Positions 2,554 through 13,737 of a stretch of 13,844 bases of DNA are shown piece after piece (positions within the stretch are counted from its first letter, which is position 1; every line of letters starts with the position of its first letter). Position numbers and translations under genes: made by a program. This stretch comes from an uncultured Candidatus Saccharibacteria bacterium (GTDB lineage: Bacteria; Patescibacteriota; Minisyncoccia; Phycocordibacterales; UBA2135): assembly GCA_964573545.1 (NCBI GenBank), contig CAZNJQ010000017.1:1-13844 (forward strand). Reading direction: 5' to 3'. The notes under the pieces were generated by a model. It searched no databases and was not told where the DNA came from. It was given only the letters and a program-made list of their open reading frames with translations.

Positions 2554-2585
2554 GCGCACGGTCGTGGCCGTTGCATTCCTGATTT

Positions 2586-2600
2586 CGGTATGGTATCGTA
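2586..2600 (+). promoter_or_regulatory. Candidate extended -10 promoter (TGgTATCGT) inside a 15-mer repeated exactly at 9808-9822
   Basis: cggtatggtatcgta lies 18 nt upstream of the rplS ATG. The identical 15-mer lies 33 nt upstream of the pup-like ORF. Confidence 0.35.
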
Positions 2601-2617
2601 CCCCTATTCTTAATTGT

Positions 2618-3079
2618 ATGAATTTTTCACCGGTTAACATTGCAGAGCGGAAAAAAATAGACATTCGGCCCGGGGACACAGTCCGCGTGTGGCAAAAGAT
2701 ACAGGAAAAAGACAAGACGCGGCTTCAGGCATTCCAGGGACTTGTGCTCGCGCGGAAGCGCGGGACGGAGCCGGGTGCAACATTCACCGTGCGAAAAATC
2801 GCATCCGGCGTCGGCGTTGAAAAAATTTTCCCGTTTTTCTCTCCGCTTATTGATAAGATTGAAATACTCCGCCGCTCAAATCCCCGGCGCTCAAAGCTCT
2901 ACTATATTCGCACCAAGACAGCGAAGGAAATAAAACGAAAGATGCGCGGCCTTGCGGAGTTCGTTCCCGTCGTACATACGAATGTTCCCGCAGAGGAGCT
3001 CGAGCGGGAGAAGGAGGGGGGTGCGCCTGCGGCATCGGCAGAAAACACGGACGTAGCGGTGGAGTCTTCAAAAAATTGA
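2618..3079 (+). CDS. rplS: 50S ribosomal protein L19 with a ~43-aa C-terminal extension
   Basis: RPGDTVRV...RLQAFQGLVLARKRG...TFTVRKIASGVGVEKIF...KLYYIR aligns with bacterial L19. Start set at the ATG at 2618 (MNFSPVN...). Confidence 0.92.
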   Translation: MNFSPVNIAERKKIDIRPGDTVRVWQKIQEKDKTRLQAFQGLVLARKRGTEPGATFTVRKIASGVGVEKIFPFFSPLIDKIEILRRSNPRRSKLYYIRTKTAKEIKRKMRGLAEFVPVVHTNVPAEELEREKEGGAPAASAENTDVAVESSKN

Positions 3080-3172: not shown

Positions 3173-3259
3173 GCGCGGGTGGCGAAATTGGTAGACGCAC
3201 TACCTTGAGGTGGTAGCGGAGGCAACTCCATGGAGGTTCAAATCCTCTCCCGCGCACCA
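3173..3259 (+). tRNA. tRNA-Leu (anticodon GAG), long variable arm, CCA encoded
   Basis: Acceptor GCGCGGG/CCCGCGC, anticodon stem CTACC/GGTAG with loop TTGAGGT, long variable arm CGGAGGCAACTCCAT, T arm GGAGG-TTCAAAT-CCTCT. Confidence 0.9.
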
Positions 3260-3260
3260 T

Positions 3261-3533
3261 ATGACAAACGAACGTTTTAAAAAAGAGAAGCAGTCCGCTC
3301 CGGAATACGGAGAAGCTCACGAATATAAGGGGTTTCAAGACGCGATAGACGAGGAGGCGCGAATCATGCGCGAAATCGAGCGCGTGTTCGCGACAGTGTC
3401 CGACCGGAACGAGGCGGAGAGAGTCGTGCTTGAGTTATGGGTTCCGCGCATTGAAGAGGCGATGCGCGAGAGCACTAAAGCTTTCCGCAGATGGCTTGAT
3501 GCGCTCACTAAGGCAAATGAAATCTCGGAGTAA
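3261..3533 (+). CDS. Hypothetical small protein (90 aa, or 55 aa if it starts at 3366)
   Basis: Open frame with helical, charged sequence. The ATG at 3261 is 1 nt after the tRNA-Leu CCA and has no SD. An internal ATG at 3366 is preceded by GAGGAGG at good spacing. The 3' end overlaps the murI start by 17 nt. No family recognised. Confidence 0.45.
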   Translation: MTNERFKKEKQSAPEYGEAHEYKGFQDAIDEEARIMREIERVFATVSDRNEAERVVLELWVPRIEEAMRESTKAFRRWLDALTKANEISE

Positions 3534-4353
3534 AGACGGAAGGAAACGCATCGGCGTTTTTGATTCCGGGTTTGGCGGACTTACCATCCTTAAGGGAATC
3601 GTACAGGAGCTTCCGAAGTACGATTACGTGTACCTTGGGGACACCGCGCGTACGCCATACGGGACGCGCTCACCCGAGGTTGTATACGAATTTACCAAAC
3701 AGGCGGTAGATTTTCTTTTTACTCACGGGAGCGAATTGATACTTTTTGCATGCAACACGGCATCAAGCGACGCGCTCCGCAAGATCCAACGTGAATATAT
3801 ACCGAAGCGGTATCCAGGAAAGAAAGTTCTCGGCGTCCTCATCCCGGCTGCCGAAGAAGCTGTTCGGGTGACGAAGCGCGGACGGATCGGCGTTATCGCG
3901 ACAGAAGGGACGGTGTTGTCGGATGCATTTCCGCGCGAGCTTTCAAAACTTGATTCCCGCATACGCGTTTTCCAGAAAGCATGTCCACTCCTTGTGCCGC
4001 TCATAGAAGCAGGAGAGCACCGAACTCCTGCTGCGCGGCTCATACTCAAAAACTATCTTCGTCCGCTTCTTTTAAAACACATAGACACGCTTATTTTAGG
4101 ATGTACGCACTATGGCATTATTGAGCGGGATATCAGGAAGATAACGGGCAAAAATGTGCGCATTATCTCCGAAGGGAGTGTCGTGCCGCGGAAATTAAAA
4201 AAGTATCTTGCAGGGCATAGCGATGTGGAACAGAAGCTCAGCAGAGGCGGGCACATCGCTTTTTATTCAACGGCCGCGACAAATAAATTTGAAAGGCTCG
4301 GAAGCGTGTTCTTCGGAAAAAAAATACACGTAAAAAGAGCAGCGCTTCTATAA
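3517..4353 (+). CDS. murI: Glutamate racemase
   Basis: IGVFDSGFGGLT, FACNTAS and LGCTHY catalytic-cysteine motifs. Start set at the ATG at 3517 (MKSRSKDGRKRIGVFDSG). Confidence 0.92.
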   Translation: MKSRSKDGRKRIGVFDSGFGGLTILKGIVQELPKYDYVYLGDTARTPYGTRSPEVVYEFTKQAVDFLFTHGSELILFACNTASSDALRKIQREYIPKRYPGKKVLGVLIPAAEEAVRVTKRGRIGVIATEGTVLSDAFPRELSKLDSRIRVFQKACPLLVPLIEAGEHRTPAARLILKNYLRPLLLKHIDTLILGCTHYGIIERDIRKITGKNVRIISEGSVVPRKLKKYLAGHSDVEQKLSRGGHIAFYSTAATNKFERLGSVFFGKKIHVKRAALL

Positions 4354-4475: not shown

Positions 4476-6389
4476 TTGTGTATCGTGGCAGATACGATAC
4501 TGAATACAGGCAAAGGCGAGGATTCTAAGGAATTTGAAAAAATCATAAAAGAAATTAAGGAGCTTGAAGATATCGTAGGGAAGGGCGAACACACGCCGGA
4601 AGAGAAAGAACGTATAGCGGTGCGGGTAAAAGAGCTACGAGATTCCGTTGTAGAGCTCGAAAGAATGCGGAAGCAGGACATGATACGTGCTGCGCAGGAT
4701 GTGCAGGAACTCGGGGGGGAGATGGCAGAGCAAGAGACGTTGATTGCGGATCTGGTGACGCGGCTTGCCGCACTGCAATCACAAAACCCCCATGGCTATG
4801 CCACGTTCGTGCGATTTATCGGCATGGAGAAGCCCGACCCTAACGCGAAAGAGCTGCCGGTCATCGAGGTTCGAGGGAATGACGGCAAACTTGCTCAGGT
4901 GTCCTTTTTGGTTAAAGAGGTTGACCCGAAGACGCTCAAATATGGACAACTGCTTATCGCCTCATGCGCAAGTGGGCCGAACCACATCATCGGAGTATCC
5001 GATGGATTCTCTGCCGACGGGAGCGAAGCGGTTGTCCGCGAACTTCTGGGAAGCGACAGAGAGGGCGTTCGTGTGCTGGTAACTATCGGCAGAGAGGATT
5101 CTGCCGAGAAAATAGTTGTCAGGCTCGCGTCAGGGGTCTTACAGGAATCTGTCGTCGAAGGCAGCCGCGTGCTTGTGGATGCGGATGCGAAACTTGTTTT
5201 TGAAGTTTTGCCGCCACAGAAGAGCACTGCGTATGTCGTAAGCGAAATGCCCTCAGTCACCTTTAAGGATATCGGCGGACACGATAGTCTCATCGCCGAG
5301 ATCGACCAAAAGATCGCATGGCCGATTTTGTATCCTGAGGTGTATGAAAAATTGGGGTTACCCGACGCAAAAGGATTCTGTCTTGAGGGTCCTCCTGGTG
5401 TCGGCAAGACGATGCTTGTGAAAGCGATCTTGAACCGTCTCTCGGAGCTCCTCGAGAAAAAGCACGGCGTGCCGGTTCACGGCCATTTCTTTTCGGTAGC
5501 GGGCCCCGAATTCCAGGTTAAGTGGGTTGGCGACACCGAGGAGAGAATGCGTAATCTGTTTAAAACCGCAAAAGAGGCGGCATCGCCGACTTCTCCCGCC
5601 ATTATATTTATTGACGAGGCGGAGTCGATTTTTCCGATTCGCGGATCAGGTATTTCGTCCGATACCGAGAAGACGAACGTTCCACAGTTCACGGCGCTTA
5701 TGGACGGCCTCACGAACCGTGGCAACGTCATCGTCATTTTGGCGACGAACAGAGTCGACCTTATGGACGGAGCGGTTATCCGCCCCGGCCGGTGCGACAA
5801 AAAAATATCCGTCTTGCGTCCCAACAAAGAGGCGGCGCGCGATATCTTCAAAAAATATCTTCTTCCGGGACACGTGCATCCAAAATATCTGGAACACTCG
5901 ATCTATGTTCCGAAAGACAGGAATGGAAGGCCGCGTCGCGGCGATGGAGGGAAAAAGATCGAACTACGACTTGATCGTAGCTCGACAAAGGCGGCGAATT
6001 ACTTGATCAGCGAGGCCGTCCGGAGAATGTATGACGAGCACATCAAAGAAAATCAATTTTTGTCCGTGAAATTTAAGGGCGAGAAAGAATGGACGCACCT
6101 CAGATACGGCGACTTTGCGAGTGGTGCCTTGATTGCGAATATCGTGGACCGCGCGAAGCATTATGCCGCGGCGCGCGTTATAACCACAGCTGAGTCAAAA
6201 GACAAAGCCTTGGGGGTCGAGAAAAAAGACCTCATGCGGGCGATCGAAGAAGTCTTCAGCGAGTTGCGTGCTCCGCAGACGCTGGGATTCCACGATTGGC
6301 TTGCGATCGAAGGCATCGGAAGAGGGAAACGCGTCGAAGATTACAAATTTATACCCGGCTGTGATACAATCGCCGAAGAAGACGATTAA
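4476..6389 (+). CDS. Mpa/ARC-type AAA+ ATPase (coiled coil, double OB, AAA module)
   Basis: N-terminal heptad-rich segment and an OB-like region. Walker A is GPPGVGKT and Walker B is IIFIDEAES. SSDTEKTNVPQFTALMDG, ATNRVDLMDGAVIRPGRCD and FASGALIANIVDRAK are collinear with mycobacterial Mpa. There is no in-frame ATG near the 5' end, so the start is TTG 4476 or, with better SD spacing, GTG 4485. The C-terminus is ...IPGCDTIAEEDD. Confidence 0.9.
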   Translation: MCIVADTILNTGKGEDSKEFEKIIKEIKELEDIVGKGEHTPEEKERIAVRVKELRDSVVELERMRKQDMIRAAQDVQELGGEMAEQETLIADLVTRLAALQSQNPHGYATFVRFIGMEKPDPNAKELPVIEVRGNDGKLAQVSFLVKEVDPKTLKYGQLLIASCASGPNHIIGVSDGFSADGSEAVVRELLGSDREGVRVLVTIGREDSAEKIVVRLASGVLQESVVEGSRVLVDADAKLVFEVLPPQKSTAYVVSEMPSVTFKDIGGHDSLIAEIDQKIAWPILYPEVYEKLGLPDAKGFCLEGPPGVGKTMLVKAILNRLSELLEKKHGVPVHGHFFSVAGPEFQVKWVGDTEERMRNLFKTAKEAASPTSPAIIFIDEAESIFPIRGSGISSDTEKTNVPQFTALMDGLTNRGNVIVILATNRVDLMDGAVIRPGRCDKKISVLRPNKEAARDIFKKYLLPGHVHPKYLEHSIYVPKDRNGRPRRGDGGKKIELRLDRSSTKAANYLISEAVRRMYDEHIKENQFLSVKFKGEKEWTHLRYGDFASGALIANIVDRAKHYAAARVITTAESKDKALGVEKKDLMRAIEEVFSELRAPQTLGFHDWLAIEGIGRGKRVEDYKFIPGCDTIAEEDD

Positions 6390-6410
6390 GTCACGGCCCC
6401 TTGAAAGAAA

Positions 6411-6440
6411 AACCCGCTTATGCAAGCGGGTTTTATTCTT
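6411..6440 (+). terminator. Rho-independent terminator after the ARC ATPase gene
   Basis: aacccgctt-atgc-aagcgggtt followed by ttattctt. Confidence 0.7.
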
Positions 6441-6542
6441 GGTGGCGGAGGCGGAGGCGGAATCACATTCCTGCTTTCTCTCTGCGAATCAAGATCCGGT
6501 ACTTACGCACGTGAGTACCCCTGTGGCTGGACGGAGGGAGCA

Positions 6543-8267
6543 ATGGACAGTCAATCAAAACCGAAAATAATCCTCGGCGCTGAGACTGAATATGGGATAT
6601 TCCTTGACCACAACGAAGAACGAATTCTCCCGGATATGGAATTGTTCTGTATAGAACGCATGCTTGACGAATGCGGACGGTCGTACGTCTCGTTCGGCGG
6701 AGTGCGAGATGTGATCCGGAACATGAAAGAGCACTCTCGTATTGAAGAAGAAGCGTCAGAGCGCAGGCGAATGTTCACCGAAACCGTTCAAAGCACGTTG
6801 GAGCGTTCCATTTCGAGCTCAAGAGCATCAAAGCAGCGCTCCGGCGAAAGCGGCATTAAAATTTCAAATGGCGCTCGGTTTTATCGTGACATGAGCCATC
6901 CGGAATATTCAACTCCGGAAACGACGAACCCATACGATATCGTGGTCGCGGAGCGCGCAGGAGACAAGATCGTTGAAGAGTGCAGGGCACGTGTGGAAGA
7001 TACGGTCAGGAAAGAATACGCGACCGCGTCTCTTTTTATCCACAAAAACAACAGTGATGGTCGCGAGACGAGCTACGGCGGACATGAAAATTATTCCGTC
7101 ACACTTGATGTTTTTAAGGCCGTCATGAATGACGGACGAGAGTGCAACGGGGAGCGCCGCGGGCGCGGGAGTAGGACGCATACGGTCGGGATGATGACGG
7201 AACTTATTTTCCTCTTCTTCGTCGCTCGTCAGATCGTTATCGGTTCAGGCAAGGTTGGCTCCGAATATGGTCCCGATGTGCCGTACCAAATTTCGCAACG
7301 GAGCGATTTTTTCTCCCGGCGATTCAGTTGGGTTACGACGCACGATAGGGGTATCATAAATCTTCGCAATATCCCCTACGCGGGCGATGCGTTTCTGAGA
7401 CGCTTTCATGTGATCCTTGGGGACAGTAATATGTCGGAGCTCTCGATATACCTCAAGCACGGGATTACGGGCATCTTCTTTATGATGCTGAACACCGGCT
7501 TTTTCAAAGAGCAATGCGGCGACATATTTTCTCCGCTTGCTGATCCGGTACGGGCGCTTCATACTGTGTCTCGCGATCTCTCACTTGAGCGGAAGCTGCC
7601 TCTCCTGGATGGGCGGCGGATGAGCGCGCTTGAGATTATGAAACTTTTCGCTGAGTGTGCGACGAAATTCTTATCGCTCCACGAATTACCCGCCGTATGG
7701 ACTGACGTCGTTCACAAATGGGACGGGGTTCTGGAGGGCCTTGCGGGAGAGCGGCACAAACACCCGCTTTCACGGTCGCTTGATTGGGTCGCGAAGGAGC
7801 GGCTTATCAACGCCGTTGTTCGCCAGAGAGAGGTTGATCCGCTAAGCAAGGAGTGCGCGTCGGTTGCGCTTGAATACCATAATTTGAATCCCGAGCAAGG
7901 CATCTTTTATCGTCTTGAAAAACGAGGCGATATACTGCGCCTTTCAGATGACGCCGATGTAGAGCGGGCACTCACAGAAGCTCCTCGCGACACGCGGGCA
8001 TGGTTCCGTTCAGAACTTATCAAGCGGTATCGCGATCATATAGAAAGCATTGGATGGAAGTCGGTTAAATTCATGACCAAGAAATTTTTCGCCGTCATTG
8101 AGTTTCCAAATCCGCTCTGGGGAGGCCCAAGGGACGCCGAAGAGCTTTTGCGCAACAATCCGCCGCTCCATGTTCTCATTCTGCGGTTATTGTCGCTAGA
8201 TGCGGAGGATGTTGTTGTCTCGTTGTATCAGAGACACGGGTATACGGAAGGAGAGAATGATGCGTGA
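6543..8267 (+). CDS. Dop/PafA-family protein, paralogue 1 (tentatively Dop-like depupylase)
   Basis: Family motifs GAETEYGI, NGARFYRDMSHPEYSTPE, SYGGHENYS, FVARQIVIGSGKVG, RFHVILGDSNMSE and APRDTRAWFR. Start set at the ATG at 6543, behind GGAGGGAG. The ~95-aa spacer between ETEYG and NGAR resembles the Dop-specific loop region. The Dop versus PafA assignment is inference. Confidence 0.85.
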   Translation: MDSQSKPKIILGAETEYGIFLDHNEERILPDMELFCIERMLDECGRSYVSFGGVRDVIRNMKEHSRIEEEASERRRMFTETVQSTLERSISSSRASKQRSGESGIKISNGARFYRDMSHPEYSTPETTNPYDIVVAERAGDKIVEECRARVEDTVRKEYATASLFIHKNNSDGRETSYGGHENYSVTLDVFKAVMNDGRECNGERRGRGSRTHTVGMMTELIFLFFVARQIVIGSGKVGSEYGPDVPYQISQRSDFFSRRFSWVTTHDRGIINLRNIPYAGDAFLRRFHVILGDSNMSELSIYLKHGITGIFFMMLNTGFFKEQCGDIFSPLADPVRALHTVSRDLSLERKLPLLDGRRMSALEIMKLFAECATKFLSLHELPAVWTDVVHKWDGVLEGLAGERHKHPLSRSLDWVAKERLINAVVRQREVDPLSKECASVALEYHNLNPEQGIFYRLEKRGDILRLSDDADVERALTEAPRDTRAWFRSELIKRYRDHIESIGWKSVKFMTKKFFAVIEFPNPLWGGPRDAEELLRNNPPLHVLILRLLSLDAEDVVVSLYQRHGYTEGENDA

Positions 8268-9795
8268 CCGGGTGATGGGTATAGAAAATGAGTTCGGTGC
8301 TGTTATTGAGTCCCCAGACGGCAGTTTTGATTATCTGCCGACAGACGGTCCATATGACACCCTGGTTGTAGGTGAGACTCTTAATATGCAACTTGAGAAA
8401 CAGAGAGACAAACTGGGATTCATGAGAATGAAAAACCGACTCTGGTTCCCGAACGGGGGATGCCTTTACATCGACCAGGGGCACTTCGAATATGCTTCTC
8501 CGGAATGCAGGCGAGTGCGAGACATCGTCGCGTATAGCCGAGCCGGGGAAGCTCTTGCAGAGAAAGTCGCTTCAGAGAGATTTTATTCCGGCAGCAGATT
8601 CCGGCTTATCAAGAACAATGTTGCGCTGAGCGCCGCTACAGGAATGACCGAGCCTGTTAAGACCAAATATGTCACGTTCGGCGCCCATGAAAACTACTTG
8701 TTCTTCGAGAATGGAGAGAGCGGGCTTTTTTCTTCCGGCCCCGAGTCCGAGATAAAACAGGGGAATTACTTCCGGGCGTTCATGGCGTTTTTGGTGACCC
8801 GCCAGATCATTGACGGCGCGGGGCGATGGATCGATGAGCCGAAGAATGCGTACATATTCTCTCAGCGTGCTTTATTCATCGAAAAGGAGTTCGAGATGGG
8901 CACTACGGGCGCGCGGTCTATCATAAACAAGCGGTCTGAGCACCACATTGATGACGGCTCACTTGATCCCCCAGAGCACCTGAAAGGGATGAAACGACTA
9001 CACCTTATCTTGGGAGACGCGAACATCCTCGATGCGGCGTTGTTCCTTAAAATCGGGACAACAAAGCTCGTGCTATCGCTTCTCGAAGAAGGGAAAATGC
9101 CGAATGTGAAAATGCGAGACCCTGTGAAAGCGAACCGCGATGTATCGCTCGTCTACAGTCCAACAACGCCGTGTATTGAGCTTGAAGACGGGACAATGGT
9201 GAGTGCATTCTATGTGCAATCGGCGTTTTACGAGAAGGCGCGGCATTATCTTTCGCACACGTGTTTTGAATCCGAGGAGAGCGAAGCGGAAGCAAAGGAA
9301 ATACTCTCTCTGTGGGAGCGTGCGCTTAAGGCGCTTGAGAGCACCGATATGGAATGGATGGTCGGACGACTTGACCATGTGACGAAGAACTTTATTGCGC
9401 AGCAGGAAATAAAAAGACAGAGGCGAGAAAACCCTCCTGTCTTCGAGGAAGCGGTCGTAGCGGCCATTGAAATCCAGTACCACGAGCTTGGCGACGACGC
9501 GTTATCGTCCAAAATGCGGGCGAAATGGAGCAGTCGGTGTATTGTGACCGACGAAGAAGTGCTCCGCGCTATCGAGAACCCACCCCCCGACACGCGCGCA
9601 TGCGCACGCGGCTTGATCGTCCGGGCATATCTTGAAAAGAAAATTCCGCTTCAGGATGTCGATTGGAGCAAGATTCAGATCGGCACAAGCCCGATCGGGT
9701 CGGTAAGCGGCGCGCAGATGTACCCGGTGTATCAGTCTCCGGACCCACTTATCGCACGGCCTTCGTGGTTATATGAATTTTGTCCCGGCATGTAG
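8257..9795 (+). CDS. Dop/PafA-family protein, paralogue 2 (tentatively PafA-like Pup ligase)
   Basis: Motifs MGIENEFG, NGGCLYIDQGHFEYASPE, FGAHENYL, FLVTRQIIDGAGR, RLHLILGDANILD and NPPPDTRACARG. ATGATG at 8257/8260 sits behind GGAAGGAG and overlaps the stop of paralogue 1 by 11 nt. Confidence 0.85.
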   Translation: MMRDRVMGIENEFGAVIESPDGSFDYLPTDGPYDTLVVGETLNMQLEKQRDKLGFMRMKNRLWFPNGGCLYIDQGHFEYASPECRRVRDIVAYSRAGEALAEKVASERFYSGSRFRLIKNNVALSAATGMTEPVKTKYVTFGAHENYLFFENGESGLFSSGPESEIKQGNYFRAFMAFLVTRQIIDGAGRWIDEPKNAYIFSQRALFIEKEFEMGTTGARSIINKRSEHHIDDGSLDPPEHLKGMKRLHLILGDANILDAALFLKIGTTKLVLSLLEEGKMPNVKMRDPVKANRDVSLVYSPTTPCIELEDGTMVSAFYVQSAFYEKARHYLSHTCFESEESEAEAKEILSLWERALKALESTDMEWMVGRLDHVTKNFIAQQEIKRQRRENPPVFEEAVVAAIEIQYHELGDDALSSKMRAKWSSRCIVTDEEVLRAIENPPPDTRACARGLIVRAYLEKKIPLQDVDWSKIQIGTSPIGSVSGAQMYPVYQSPDPLIARPSWLYEFCPGM

Positions 9796-9807
9796 CACGC
9801 AAAGATG

Positions 9808-9822
9808 CGGTATGGTATCGTA
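9808..9822 (+). promoter_or_regulatory. Second exact copy of the 15-mer cggtatggtatcgta (candidate extended -10)
   Basis: Identical to 2586-2600. Located between the pafA-like stop (9795) and the pup-like ATG (9855). Confidence 0.35.
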
Positions 9823-9854
9823 ACGGCAGAGAAGGCAGGTTGCGGAAGTAAAAG

Positions 9855-10031
9855 ATGACCTCGAAGAAAACATCGCCCCAAAAGCCGAACCCGAAAGGGA
9901 AAGGAAAAAAGGGGGCGTCCGGTAAAGACACGAAAGACGACACTCTCGATATTTCCGGGCTTGTCGACACGGCATCGTCTGAACGCGCAAAGAAACTTGC
10001 CGAGAAGTACAAACAAAAAGGTGGAGAATGA
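9855..10031 (+). CDS. Pup/UBact-like small modifier protein (58 aa), not in the supplied ORF track
   Basis: Hand translation: MTSKKTSPQKPNPKGKGKKGASGKDTKDDTLDISGLVDTASSERAKKLAEKYKQKGGE-stop. The C-terminal YKQKGGE parallels mycobacterial Pup ...YVQKGGQ. It has an SD-like GGAAG upstream and a terminator directly downstream, and it follows two Dop/PafA genes. Confidence 0.75.
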   Translation: MTSKKTSPQKPNPKGKGKKGASGKDTKDDTLDISGLVDTASSERAKKLAEKYKQKGGE

Positions 10032-10034
10032 CCC

Positions 10035-10066
10035 AAAGCCGCTCGCTTGATTTGAGCGGCTTTTTT
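10035..10066 (+). terminator. Rho-independent terminator after the pup-like ORF
   Basis: aaagccgctc-gcttgattt-gagcggcttt followed by ttt. Confidence 0.75.
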
Positions 10067-10112: not shown

Positions 10113-12668
10113 ATGTCTCTGCAAGGCACCAAAATCGGCTTTGAGGATGCTCGCCGAGTATGCGAAGAAGAGCTTTGCGCAATGCCCGCTTCCTCCGGAG
10201 AGGAAGATTCTTCCCAGCGGGCGGCAACGAGTTCATTTTTCGGAGTCAGCCAGGAGCGTTTTCTAAGCGCTCTCTCTGTTGCCATCGAGAGCAATGACCA
10301 GTTCGCAAATGTGTTTGTTTCCGGAATCTCAGGACCGGGCGGACTTGAAGCTGTTGAATGGCATGTCTCACGCATGGTTCGGGAACGGGAAAACATCGGC
10401 GACAAAAAACCCGCTCCGAATGACTGGGTATATGTGTACAATTTCAAGAACCCCCGCTCTCCCGTTTCGATTCCTCTCACTAAAGGTAATGCGAGAGTAT
10501 TTCAAAAAAAGATCGGGCTCTTACTCAAGAAATTACGCCAGCTCATTCCGGAGGCGCTCACGAGCGATACGGTCCTCGCGAAAGACAACGCTTTGTATGG
10601 CCAGTACGAGGGATGGTTTGATGCGGAAAAGGAGGCGATTGCGAGGCGCGCATTGGAGCTTGGACTTGAGATGAAAACTGCCCAGTCGCAGAAAGGAGTG
10701 GAAACTGTACGGTTCGTTCCGTCAGAGCGTACACAAGAGCCGGGCGCTGAAAAGCAGGAAGTTTCGGAAAAGAAGCCTCGCGCCTCAAAAGGAAAACTAA
10801 AAAGACACGCATCGGCGCTTCGCCAAAAACCCCAGGACGCGAATCGTGAAGGAGGGATGTCGGAAGAAGATCTTCGTCCCAAACTCACAGAGCTTTTTTC
10901 ACTGTGGACCGCGCTTATTCAAGAGAATACGCGGCGCATGAAACAATATTCTGAAAGCGCGGAGCATGTCAGAGAAGAGGCTGCCAAGGAAGTGATTGTC
11001 GACTTGTTTTCCAAATTGAACGTCGAGCAGAAAGATGCTTCACTCCTCGGCAATTTCATCGATGGGCTCCGCGAGCACGCGGAAGAAAACTGGGAGTTGT
11101 TCGCCGAAGAGGACCGCAAGAACAACCAACACGCGCCCTTTGGGGCGGCAATGGAACGCGATCAGTTCTTGCCATGGCGCGTGAATGTGTTCATCGACAA
11201 CAGTGGAACAGACGGTACTCCTGTCGTCGCAGAGCGCGTTTCATCGATTGCCGACCTTGTCGGCAAAGTCGAGTATCGCGGCATGATGGGAATCACATTT
11301 ACGGATCACACGATGATAGTTCCCGGCGCAGTTGCTAGGGCGAACGGCGGGTTCATCATCTTAAGCGCAGAGGAATTACTGACGGTTCCGGGTTTATGGC
11401 AGCTTCTGAAGCGGTGCATCAAAAACAACGCCAATGGTTTTGATACGATCATGTCACTTGAAGGCTACGGCACGTCTCAGATCGATCCCATTCCGATTCC
11501 TCTCGACCTTCGGTTTATCTTGTTCGGCTCAAGCAGTCTCATAAACTTCATCGCCGAACATGACCACGAATTTTACGACCTATTTCCTGTCCGGGCTGAG
11601 ATCTCTAATGTTGTCGAGTGTTCGGATACGGAAATTCGTGCGTATTGCAATTGGATGCGCGATGTTTCTCGAGAGCGCACGTTACTGCCGCTTTCGGCAG
11701 GCGCGTGCGCAGGCATGATCGAATATGCGGGACGGGTCGCGGACCACAAATATGAGCTGACGACGGATTTTTCCCACCTCGAGGGAGTACTAAAAGAGGC
11801 TCACGTGGTCGCGAAGCACGAACACGCGGAGAATATCTCGCGGGTCCATGTTCAAAAAGCGATCCATGCAAAGTTCTGGAGAGGGGATTTCATCTGCGAA
11901 CTCATGCGTAAGGGCGTTCGTGATTCACAGCGTGTCATCCATGTTTCCGGAGAATCGGTAGGGCGCATCAACGGACTTACTGTTTTGTCATACGGCGATA
12001 TCACGTTTGGTTTCCCGTGCTGCATAACAGCGGGTGTGAATGTCGGAAAGCCTGGAATTCTCAACATCGTTCGCGATGCCAAGATGAGCGGCAACCTTTT
12101 GAACAAGGCGGACGAGACGGTCCAAGGTGTCCTTAAGGGGCGGTTTGCGCAACGCTTTCCGCTTGCCCTTGAAATCTGTTTCAGTTTTGAACAGTCGTAC
12201 GGGATGATAGACGGCGACAGTGCGTCGCTTGCCGAATATTTCGTCATTACATCGCGAATTTCCGGGGTTCCCATCAAACAATCCATCGCCGTTACGGGTT
12301 CATTGAGTCTCCTCGGAGATGTTCAGCCGATTGGCGGCGTGAACGAGAAAATCGAAGGATTCTTTGACGTATGCGTTGCCTGTGGCGGCCTTTCCGGCGA
12401 GCAGGGAGTCATTATTCCCTGGCAGAACAAAGTCAACCTCATGCTTCGCGAAGATGTGGTTCAGGCGATAAAAGAAAACAAATTCCACATCTGGGCGATA
12501 CGAACGCTCGATGAGGGGATTGAGATTCTCACAGGAATGAGCGCGGGGACTTTACAACAGGAAAATGGAAGTTACCCCGACGATACGTTTAACGCGCGCG
12601 TGTGCAAGAAGATTGAAGAATACGCACGGCACGCAAAAGAGTTTTTTGAACCTTCAAAAAAAGATTAA
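10113..12668 (+). CDS. Lon-like serine protease (AAA_32-like N-region plus Lon_C/S16 domain) with degenerate ATPase motifs
   Basis: The C-terminal S16 domain has MIDGDSASLAEY (LonB/LonC-type Ser motif; Ser codon 12219-12221) and IGGVNEKIEGF (catalytic Lys). DWVYVYNFKNPRSP is typical of this Lon-like family. The Walker A position reads GISGPGGLE (no Lys-Ser/Thr) and the Walker B position reads GGFIILSAEE (no Asp). A long charged helical insertion sits in between. Confidence 0.85.
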   Translation: MSLQGTKIGFEDARRVCEEELCAMPASSGEEDSSQRAATSSFFGVSQERFLSALSVAIESNDQFANVFVSGISGPGGLEAVEWHVSRMVRERENIGDKKPAPNDWVYVYNFKNPRSPVSIPLTKGNARVFQKKIGLLLKKLRQLIPEALTSDTVLAKDNALYGQYEGWFDAEKEAIARRALELGLEMKTAQSQKGVETVRFVPSERTQEPGAEKQEVSEKKPRASKGKLKRHASALRQKPQDANREGGMSEEDLRPKLTELFSLWTALIQENTRRMKQYSESAEHVREEAAKEVIVDLFSKLNVEQKDASLLGNFIDGLREHAEENWELFAEEDRKNNQHAPFGAAMERDQFLPWRVNVFIDNSGTDGTPVVAERVSSIADLVGKVEYRGMMGITFTDHTMIVPGAVARANGGFIILSAEELLTVPGLWQLLKRCIKNNANGFDTIMSLEGYGTSQIDPIPIPLDLRFILFGSSSLINFIAEHDHEFYDLFPVRAEISNVVECSDTEIRAYCNWMRDVSRERTLLPLSAGACAGMIEYAGRVADHKYELTTDFSHLEGVLKEAHVVAKHEHAENISRVHVQKAIHAKFWRGDFICELMRKGVRDSQRVIHVSGESVGRINGLTVLSYGDITFGFPCCITAGVNVGKPGILNIVRDAKMSGNLLNKADETVQGVLKGRFAQRFPLALEICFSFEQSYGMIDGDSASLAEYFVITSRISGVPIKQSIAVTGSLSLLGDVQPIGGVNEKIEGFFDVCVACGGLSGEQGVIIPWQNKVNLMLREDVVQAIKENKFHIWAIRTLDEGIEILTGMSAGTLQQENGSYPDDTFNARVCKKIEEYARHAKEFFEPSKKD

Positions 12669-12681
12669 AACACCAAGAGAT

Positions 12682-12714
12682 AAACGCAGCCCCAAAGCTG
12701 CGTTTTTTTGTTTT
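12682..12714 (+). terminator. Rho-independent terminator after the lon-like gene
   Basis: aaacgcagc-cccaaa-gctgcgttt followed by ttttgtttt. Confidence 0.8.
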
Positions 12715-12763
12715 AAAAAACCGCATTGAGTGAAGAGACATCTTCTCTTCGCCTCAATGCGGT
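12715..12763 (-). terminator. Terminator for the convergent CDF gene
   Basis: ccgcattgag/ctcaatgcgg outer stem with a gaagag/ctcttc inner stem, followed on the minus strand by a T-run. The right arm overlaps the last codons and stop of the CDF gene. Confidence 0.65.
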
Positions 12764-13461
12764 TTGTGTTCAGGAGCATGAATACCGTTTTGGACTTTAG
12801 TGAACAAAGTTCCGGAGAGAAAGAACATATAGGCGGCAACCGCCACAGAGAGTATCGGGTCGGCATGCACCCATCCGAACGCGAATGTCGCTAGCCAGGA
12901 GGCGGCGACGACGACAGAGAGCAATAGATCCGATATCACGTGCAGCGAGAATGTCGCGTGCGTATGGTTGTGTTCCTTGTTCGGAATTTTCTCGAGCAGG
13001 CGGTGTATCCACACATTGCCTGCACCGCCGATGATGGCAATCATAAGCACGAGCCAACTTTGGTTGTATACCGGTGCGCTCATGCGTTCATGCGCTTCGA
13101 CGAGCACATAGAAGGCGCCGCCGACAAGCAAGGCGATTCCTGCATACGCGAATATCTTCCGGACGCTGAGTTCCTGGGCCGTTGAACACCGCAACGCCAG
13201 GAGAGCTACGAAGAGCGAACCAATGTAAATCGCGACAAGATCCGAACTTGCATGGATCGTATCGCCGAGGAGCGTCAAGCTTTTCGAATAGATAATGAGG
13301 ACTGCTTGCTGCGCCGCAACGATCGCCCCTTGGACGAGCGACGCGATGCCATAGATTCTGGCCTCTTTTTTAATGTCGACGATTCTCGTGCCTGCGCTCG
13401 AATCGTCCGTGTGCTCGTGCCCCTCCGGATGGAGGTGGCAATGCGTGTGCGATTCGTGCAT
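12754..13461 (-). CDS. Cation diffusion facilitator (CDF) family metal exporter, membrane domain only
   Basis: Six predicted TM segments. TM2 has HASSD and TM5 has HVISD (HxxxD pairs of the CDF metal site). The N-terminus is His-rich (MHESHTHCHLHPEGHEH). Start set at the ATG at 13461, behind GGAGGA with 7-nt spacing; the track start is 13515. Confidence 0.8.
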   Translation of the reverse strand: MHESHTHCHLHPEGHEHTDDSSAGTRIVDIKKEARIYGIASLVQGAIVAAQQAVLIIYSKSLTLLGDTIHASSDLVAIYIGSLFVALLALRCSTAQELSVRKIFAYAGIALLVGGAFYVLVEAHERMSAPVYNQSWLVLMIAIIGGAGNVWIHRLLEKIPNKEHNHTHATFSLHVISDLLLSVVVAASWLATFAFGWVHADPILSVAVAAYMFFLSGTLFTKVQNGIHAPEHKPH

Positions 13462-13652
13462 CGCGCTTCCTCCAATGGTTGGTTGTGGAAAAGAATTCTG
13501 CGCGAACTCTATCATGCTTCAACGCTCTTGTCAAAATGTAGACTTTGTTGCGTAAAGTGTGCTATAACAATAAGCGACTTCAAAAGCGGATATGAAAATG
13601 TAGTGCGTCGGGATATTTTTACTTTTTCATTTTTACTTTTGAACTTTTACAC

Positions 13653-13725
13653 GGTGCCTATGGTGTAACGGTTAGCACAGCTCCCTGTGGAGGAGCCAGA
13701 CTGGGTTCGAATCCCAGTAGGCACC
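13653..13725 (+). tRNA. tRNA-His (anticodon GUG) with genomically encoded G-1
   Basis: G-1 opposite C73, acceptor GTGCCTA/TAGGCAC, D stem GTGT/GCAC, anticodon loop CTGTGGA, 4-nt variable loop, T arm CTGGG-TTCGAAT-CCCAG. CCA is not fully encoded. Confidence 0.88.
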
Positions 13726-13737
13726 CAAAAATAATGA

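Follow-up and report, generated by a model that had tools for sequence, protein, structure and literature searches.

A LonC-type protease with degenerate nucleotide-binding motifs in a pupylation-like gene cassette of an uncultured Candidatus Saccharibacteria bacterium

Background

What is the fate of pupylated proteins without a proteasome? Pupylation is seen as a pathway of actinobacteria that centres on the 20S proteasome, and Pup-like systems are reportedly also present in some candidate phyla (the 'UBact' systems of a 2017 paper in Biochemical and Biophysical Research Communications). The question is raised by a 13,844-nucleotide stretch of DNA (contig CAZNJQ010000017.1; hereafter the window, meaning the whole stretch) from an uncultured Candidatus Saccharibacteria bacterium. 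The window carries a cassette whose gene order is Mpa/ARC-like ATPase, Dop-like protein, PafA-like protein, small Pup-like open reading frame (ORF) and, last, a LonC-type protease (hereafter the window Lon).

We consider it fairly probable that the window Lon is an ATP-blind LonC chamber that acts as the proteolytic end-point of a proteasome-less pupylation cassette, in place of the 20S proteasome. For one lineage, the cassette thus gives a concrete and testable answer to the question above. A literature search found no publication on this cassette or on a link between pupylation and a Lon protease. The LonC subfamily itself is already known; what is new here is the loss of the P-loop Lys/Arg together with a fixed pupylation partnership.

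Results and discussion

Identity and architecture of the window Lon

The gene and the elements by which it was classified are as follows.

10113..12668, + strand: LonC-type protease gene (851 amino acids), with an AAA-like module with a dead P-loop, a helical-hairpin extension, a LID domain and an S16 protease domain
10488..11162, + strand: LonC-type helical-hairpin extension in the AAA-like alpha/beta domain (residues ~126-350), including the clade-specific Trp168
12210..12227, + strand: protease active-site serine motif DGDSAS (residues 700-705, with Ser703), its column invariant in all aligned homologues
12333..12359, + strand: catalytic lysine motif GGVNEKIEG (residues 741-749, with Lys746), its column invariant in all aligned homologues
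12372..12398, + strand: LonC-specific insertion 1, CVACGGLSG (C754 to G762)

The ORF at 10113-12668 (+) comprises 851 codons plus a stop and is annotated in the deposited record as 'AAA family ATPase'. By every sequence and fold criterion tested, its product belongs to the LonC subfamily. Pfam matches are to LonC_helical (residues 104-134, E-value 2.9e-10), AAA_32 (368-497, 7e-32), LonB_AAA-LID (526-589) and Lon_C (700-804, 1.3e-8). The closest sequence in the PDB is MtaLonC/TTC1975 (1.6e-65 over residues 353-809), with LonB (1.7e-21) and LonA (~1e-4) as runners-up. The ORF is not a chance one, given its AAA_32 (7e-32) and MtaLonC (1.6e-65) matches. An AlphaFold2 model built on 64 sequences has a mean predicted local distance difference test score (pLDDT) of 84.7 and a predicted template-modelling score (pTM) of 0.75, and its top Foldseek match is the full-length cryo-electron microscopy structure of MtaLonC (8k8v_A; E 1.8e-49, target-normalised template-modelling score 0.82).

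Two other identities were considered and rejected. A LonA, LonB or sporulation Lon is rejected as the NCBIfam equivalogs all score far under their cut-offs (LonB equivalog 113.7 bits against 516.6; lon 25 against 608); the protein also has neither the LonA N-domain nor the LonB transmembrane insert. A defence-system Lon such as BREX BrxL is rejected as no PADLOC defence model matches the window Lon; both ligase-family proteins of the cassette are likewise without a PADLOC match, and the ATPase has generic AAA matches only.

An earlier note on this DNA, made from the letters alone, had described a Lon-like protease with an intact Ser-Lys dyad and dead ATPase motifs, and all four strings that it quoted (GISGPGGLE, GGFIILSAEE, DGDSAS and GGVNEKIEG) are present in the translation. 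The dyad is indeed intact: in a MAFFT alignment of 124 sequences (the window Lon, 119 homologues and four cassette relatives), the Ser703 and Lys746 columns are invariant. Insertion 1 matches the published CX3GLX(G/E) consensus with one additional residue, and a second LonC-specific insertion in the protease domain, phi-X2-A-phi, is present as V782-VQ-A785-I786; both align with MtaLonC segments.

The note had also reported a long charged insertion at roughly residues 150-350. This insertion is real and charged; it starts earlier, however, and extends from ~126 to 350 (~225 residues, 35% charged, not hydrophobic), splitting the AAA-like fold. The AlphaFold2 model shows helices at 126-182 and 251-325 and, between them, a beta-hairpin (185-203) and a disordered K/E-rich loop (206-247). 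This fits the description of MtaLonC, in which a helical-hairpin extension bears a beta-hairpin hook (PMC13069640).

Loss of the nucleotide-binding motifs

The degenerate motifs lie at the following positions.

10323..10349, + strand: degenerate Walker A/P-loop GISGPGGLE (residues 71-79), with Gly77 in place of K/R and Leu78 in place of S/T
11346..11375, + strand: degenerate Walker B GGFIILSAEE (residues 412-421), with Ser418 in place of Asp and Ala419 in place of the catalytic Glu

The placement of both motifs, first made in the earlier note, is borne out by alignment and by fold. In the MAFFT alignment, residues 71-78 sit on the family G-x-x-G-x-G-[KR]-[ST] columns and residue 418 on the Walker-B Asp column; HMMER pairs the window GGFIILSA with GGYLILDA of MtaLonC, the string named 'Walker B-like' by Liao et al. 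(PMC3391209). In the AlphaFold2 model, strand 67-70, loop 71-76 and helix 77-94 have P-loop geometry, and strand 414-418 is the Walker-B strand. Canonical Walker motifs elsewhere in the protein, which the note had named as the finding that would overturn its reading, are rejected: a regular-expression scan of the whole Lon protein returned zero GK[ST], zero [AG]x4GK[ST] and zero hhhhD[DE].

The two substitutions differ in how far they set this protein apart. All 142 other (non-cassette) homologues aligned have K or R at column 77, and Gly76, invariant in the 119 non-cassette homologues counted, is degraded in most members of the cassette Lon clade. The Walker-B Asp column is variable in LonC (D in 43/119, with Q, N, H and E also common), so Ser418, correctly placed by the note, is not distinctive.

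MtaLonC keeps the P-loop Lys (GPPSLGKHE) and binds ATP-gamma-S without hydrolysing ATP (PMC3391209). Both MtaLonC and TTC1975 show no ATPase activity despite this Lys, and degrade only unfolded substrates (PMC3391209). Nucleotide binding promotes the active closed hexamer of MtaLonC (PMC13069640). The likeness to LonC that the note had drawn thus stands on Pfam, PDB, fold and both insertions, with the qualification that motif degeneration in the window Lon exceeds that in MtaLonC. Judged from its sequence, the window Lon lacks the P-loop K/R behind the MtaLonC type of ATP-gamma-S binding and is a variant within LonC. With no P-loop K/R and no Walker-B acidic pair, its AAA-like module is probably a structural scaffold only, an assignment in which we have moderate confidence. 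That the nucleotide site has been lost is in keeping with a chamber that may assemble or be gated without nucleotide, perhaps with the help of a partner instead.

A self-powered Lon, which would still bind and hydrolyse ATP by means of non-canonical residues in its AAA-like module, is highly improbable. Nothing in the sequence speaks for it, and its one footing is the binding of ATP-gamma-S by MtaLonC (PMC3391209); the window Lon lacks both K/R and S/T in the P-loop, lacks the Walker-B Asp-Glu and offers no alternative motifs, and ATPase activity is missing even in LonC proteins that keep the Lys (PMC3391209).

The cassette and its conservation

The other cassette genes and the two hairpins near the Lon gene are as follows.

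4476..6389, + strand: Mpa/ARC-like AAA+ unfoldase, with an N-terminal helical region, an OB domain, intact Walker A (GPPGVGKT) and intact Walker B (IIFIDEAE)
6420..8267, + strand: Dop-like Pup_ligase-family protein (TIGR03688 328 bits, TIGR03686 283 bits)
8200..9795, + strand: PafA-like Pup ligase homologue, with a likely start at 8257 that overlaps the end of the upstream gene
9855..10031, + strand: Pup-like ORF of 58 amino acids ending AEKYKQKGGE, directly after the PafA-like gene ('hypothetical protein' in GenBank)
10035..10063, + strand: GC-rich hairpin plus T-run (terminator- or attenuator-like), directly after pup
12682..12705, + strand: terminator-like hairpin after the Lon stop

The window ATPase matches TIGR03689 (1e-93) and the Mpa structure 5kwa (1.4e-69), the latter match spanning the OB domain through the C-terminal domain. 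In Mpa, the GQYL motif with its penultimate Tyr inserts into the pockets of the 20S alpha-ring (PMC8223512); the window ATPase ends in an acidic sequence (IAEEDD) with no GQYL/HbYX. The Dop-like and PafA-like proteins match PF03136 (1.5e-111 and 1.5e-84, respectively). Each scores higher on the model after which it is named and below the equivalog cut-offs, and the Dop and PafA role assignments are tentative. A strong hairpin just 3' of the Mpa-like stop (6409-6434) overlaps the mechanical start of the Dop-like ORF (6420-6545). The odd N-terminus of this ORF (MQAGFILGGGGGGG...) is probably untranslated, with the true start at Met42 near 6543.

The cassette was sampled from both of its ends. 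From the ligase side, homologues of the PafA-like protein (33-40% identity) led to nine distinct loci. In six of these (L005, L006, L009/L010, L011, L094 and L095) the cassette is present with its order and strand unchanged. In L094 (5009-6472) and L095 (10001-11398), a third, extra PafA-like ligase lies between pup and Lon. The remaining three of the nine (L007/L008, L093 and L012) have no ATPase, Lon or Dop-like gene. L007/L008 (10001-14774) and L093 (4237-8938) carry three PafA-like paralogues beside uvrC and dnaJ-dnaK-grpE-hrcA, and L012 (4972-6459) a single ligase; all extra ligase paralogues are PafA-like and none is Dop-like. No convincing Pup ORF was found in L093, the sole one of these three in which a small ORF was read. 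In such ligase-only loci the enzyme may serve another purpose, possibly a non-degradative one.

From the Lon side, five metagenome contigs matched a degenerate DNA pattern that encodes the clade-specific peptide FLPWxVN..[VI]DN. L097 has the complete cassette, L096 a partial one (PafA-like, Pup-like and Lon), and in L099 a Pup-like ORF ending KQKGGQ lies directly upstream of Lon; the contigs of L098 and L100 are too short to show neighbours. The cassette, full or partial, is therefore present in 3/3 informative loci. Taken together, a Pup-like ORF followed by this Lon is found in ten independent loci (the window, L005, L006, L009/L010, L011, L094-L097 and L099), and the full AAA/Dop-like/PafA-like/small ORF/LonC order in the window, L005, L006, L009/L010, L011, L094, L095 and L097. 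Flanking genes differ at every cassette locus, and cassette protein identities are just 29-44%.

The small ORFs encode 52-77 amino acids where measured, and in the ten loci end in KGGE, SKGE, ETGE, SGGQ, TGGE, KGGE, RGAE, KGGE, KGGQ and TSAE; the GGQ ends are those of L009 and L099. An M. tuberculosis Pup sequence was aligned for comparison. A GC-rich hairpin plus T-run follows the pup-like stop in all seven cassette loci that were folded, which points to a conserved 3' element (a terminator, an attenuator or an mRNA-stabilising end); it could keep expression of Pup high relative to that of the protease. Outside the window these hairpins lie at ~9645-9672 (L005), ~5546-5575 (L006), ~11813-11848 (L009), ~11874-11905 (L011), ~4930-4958 (L094) and ~9921-9955 (L095).

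GQYL/HbYX is missing from 8/8 of the cassette ATPase C-termini seen, and six of the eight are acidic: AEEDD (window, 6345-6386), EEDTD (L005), EEAID (L006), EEEEEEL (L094), DEEAELY (L095) and DDDYEEAIL (L097). The acidic tail is a candidate docking or regulatory element. Neither the window nor the gene tables of the cassette loci, which cover up to 10 kb of flank, contain a PF00227 proteasome gene.

As a negative control, we used 80 ordinary LonC loci among the matches listed by a contig profile search with the cassette-Lon alignment; they come from Nitrospirota, Chloroflexota, Desulfobacterota, Bathyarchaeia and other groups, and none of the listed matches was a cassette Lon. A Pup-ligase or Mpa-like gene was found at none of these 80 listed loci (up to 9 kb of flank per side; tblastn E 1e-8 or better). 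The earlier note had seen in this locus a motor-less chamber beside a chamber-less motor, and the idea has gained from the recurrence of the gene order in independent loci, from its lack at the 80 control loci and from ATPases without GQYL/HbYX. Motor and chamber may be physically coupled.

In mycobacteria, prcBA follows pup. The position of the window Lon bears on a second reading, in which pupylation is non-degradative as in Corynebacterium: Pup and the ARC-like ATPase would remodel or disassemble targets, and Lon would clear by-products such as released Pup or peptides, or have an unrelated role. Proteasome-less actinobacteria do keep Pup, PafA, Dop and ARC, with an ARC that has no docking motif (PMC3511204), and disassembly of ferritin in C. 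glutamicum is a documented example (PMC8223512). The actinobacterial loci are not described as gaining a chambered protease after pup, whereas here such a protease is fixed just downstream of pup (in L094 and L095, after the third PafA-like ligase), like mycobacterial prcBA. We regard this reading as quite improbable.

A distinct Lon clade

The cassette Lons also stand apart from other LonC proteins in sequence. The seven cassette Lons of the first sampling cluster in 99/100 neighbour-joining bootstraps against 142 other LonC sequences. The first five cassette Lons have Gly at residue 77, and those of L094, L096, L097, L099 and L100 are non-K/R there too; the exception is L095, which keeps a shifted GGKSRTS and appears basal in the clade. 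His399 (window nucleotides 11307-11309) is present in 100% of the clade, versus Phe in 81% of other LonC. In the AlphaFold2 model it lies in a turn between strands 394-396 and 402-404, ~19 residues ahead of the Walker-B strand, which would be the site of the AAA+ pore-loop-1 aromatic residue. The clade signature LPW353-355 replaces the RRY of other LonC; the clade is also marked by Trp168, which lies in the helical hairpin, and by Trp514, Asp552 and Ala666.

Word-indexed searches, for which the full-length Lon or residues 1-600 served as the query, returned just ordinary LonC proteins (35% identity or less, all with K/R in the P-loop) and missed the cassette clade, which was reached only via PafA-like neighbours, the clade-specific DNA pattern and an exhaustive search of representatives. 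In this last search (HMMER, 1.84 billion representatives, with Lon residues 1-600 as the query), 27 of the best 147 representatives have a non-K/R P-loop, including all 17 top-ranked ones (P0216-P0232). Nearly all 27 retain the Ser and Lys motifs; P0227 and P0239 depart from DSAS, and two of the 27 are fragments without the protease domain. The dead-P-loop clade is modest in size but real and diverse.

Some cassette Lons have features of their own. Those of L009 and L011 have in common a ~40-residue insertion (..EQEIEAFCRS..PF..P.E...) at the start of the protease domain (alignment columns ~667-706), which is missing from the window Lon and from other LonC. In L006 (5661-8171), two in-frame stops divide the Lon among three ORFs, and the N-terminus of the L005 Lon is split off as a 49-amino acid ORF (9716-9865). 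Such breaks could stem from errors in assembly, from programmed events or from decay of the gene.

The clade, the gene order and the control loci bear jointly on a third reading, that of a stand-alone LonC: an ATP-independent quality-control protease or heat-induced chaperone that would handle proteins which unfold spontaneously and that is merely co-located or co-regulated with the Pup genes, as in a stress regulon. MtaLonC does work alone as protease and chaperone (PMC3391209, PMC13069640), and a terminator-like hairpin separates pup from lon in every locus folded. Yet the adjacency is kept at 29-44% identity with unrelated flanks, Pup neighbours are missing at the 80 listed ordinary LonC loci, and the linked Lons form their own clade with common substitutions and P-loop loss. 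We therefore consider a stand-alone role unlikely.

Proposed pathway

We propose the following pathway for the cassette. The PafA-like ligase would attach the Pup-like tag to lysines of the target. The window tag ends in GGE, the ligation-ready PupE form, and so would need no deamidation; the Dop-like enzyme would remove or recycle the tag and would deamidate the GGQ variants (L009 and L099). The Mpa/ARC-like hexamer would bind the tag, and unfold and thread the substrate. The LonC chamber would then degrade the unfolded chain, replacing the 20S proteasome; by analogy with MtaLonC, it may cut unfolded chains only. We infer, in this sense, that Lon degrades pupylated substrates.

How the motor would meet the chamber is a matter of conjecture. 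One could imagine a 6:6 symmetric docking, perhaps through the crown of helical hairpins and the acidic ATPase tail. In this picture, an Mpa/ARC-like hexamer that recognises Pup would dock onto the nucleotide-blind LonC hexamer and feed it, and a de-motorised Lon would replace the 20S proteasome; we see this as a real, if rather doubtful, possibility.

The helical-hairpin extension invites a different arrangement, in which it is itself the Pup receptor: it would bind Pup directly, like the coiled coil of Mpa, loosely folded pupylated proteins would enter the chamber with no need for the ATPase to dock, and the ATPase would be a separate disassembly or unfolding factor. In MtaLonC this extension recognises substrates (PMC13069640), in the cassette clade it carries the specific Trp168, and Pup is helical when bound to coiled coils (PMC8223512). 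A chamber that works without ATP is unable to unfold stable substrates, however (PMC3391209), and the ATPase is kept in all seven cassettes with a visible upstream region. A Pup receptor on Lon is decidedly unlikely.

Several points weigh against Lon as the end-point of the pathway. The Pfam Pup model gave no match to the seven small cassette ORFs, so that the Pup assignment rests on size, position and C-terminus. The hairpins after pup, and after the window ATPase gene, may mean that Lon is transcribed separately or only by read-through. Genes for 20S could lie elsewhere in these genomes, as the PF00227 negative covers locus DNA only. Long-branch attraction could have raised the support for the neighbour-joining clade. 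The idea of docking is speculative, and coaxial stacking could be impeded by the crown of helical hairpins. Finally, corynebacterial proteasome-less Pup/ARC can act without degradation (PMC3511204, PMC8223512).

Genomic context

The remaining annotated features of the window are as follows.

742-817: tRNA-Val (TAC)
827-1108: acylphosphatase
1060-1803: uppS
1813-2553: pseudouridine synthase
2564-3079: rplS
3173-3259: tRNA-Leu (GAG)
3430-4353: murI
12754-13515, - strand: cation-efflux (CDF) gene
13654-13726: tRNA-His (GTG)

Three tRNA genes are interspersed with housekeeping genes, and the cassette lies in an ordinary chromosomal context with no obvious mobile element. Exact copies of the Lon are present on contigs from metagenomes of Hainich groundwater collected on 0.1-µm filters. 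Antitoxins are classic protease substrates. Toxin-antitoxin pairs (RelB/YafQ-ParE, Phd/YefM and HicA) occur near Pup genes in L005 (13343-13890 and 16761-17003) and L012 (690-1951).

Comparison with known systems

Within the LonC subfamily (MtaLonC and Thermus thermophilus TTC1975; MEROPS S16), the window Lon has the same domain order, Ser-Lys dyad, LonC insertions and beta-hairpin tip, and like its relatives lacks a LonA N-domain, a LonB transmembrane insert and the Walker-B Asp-Glu pair. It differs in having no P-loop K/R, in its extra disordered charged loop (206-247), in His399, LPW353-355, Trp168 and Trp514, and in that its clade is fixed beside pupylation genes. If this partnership is as proposed, LonC would gain a physiological context.

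The actinobacterial Pup-proteasome system (Mpa/ARC, Dop, Pup, PrcB, PrcA and PafA) resembles the window locus in its Mpa-like single-ring AAA ATPase with an OB domain, its Dop-like and PafA-like Pup_ligase members, its small disordered tag ending GG[EQ] and a chambered protease after pup. In contrast, the window locus has a LonC-type serine protease where the 20S alpha/beta genes stand, an ATPase without GQYL, the order dop-pafA-pup and a Patescibacteria-type groundwater bacterium as host. The proposal, if true, would mean that a ubiquitin-like degradation pathway is retained in ultra-small, genome-reduced bacteria.

Proteasome-less loci of the Corynebacterium type also have Pup, PafA, Dop, an ARC without the proteasome-interaction motif and no 20S genes (PMC3511204). 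They differ in that no replacement protease has been described for them and that they are non-degradative on at least one target, ferritin; here a chambered protease accompanies the Pup-like ORF in all ten loci.

The Lon family is otherwise defined by a motor and a chamber fused in a single chain. The arrangement proposed here is closer to the two-component AAA+ proteases (ClpXP, HslUV and PAN/Mpa-20S), in which a separate hexameric unfoldase serves an energy-independent, self-compartmentalised peptidase. It differs from these in that docking elements such as IGF loops or HbYX are not recognisable, and in that the peptidase would be a Lon. With only five genes, reconstitution of the system in vitro should be easy. 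If the proposal is correct, this would be the first Lon-family protease to serve as the peptidase partner in a two-component AAA+ protease, and AAA+ protease modules would have been re-partnered across families in evolution.

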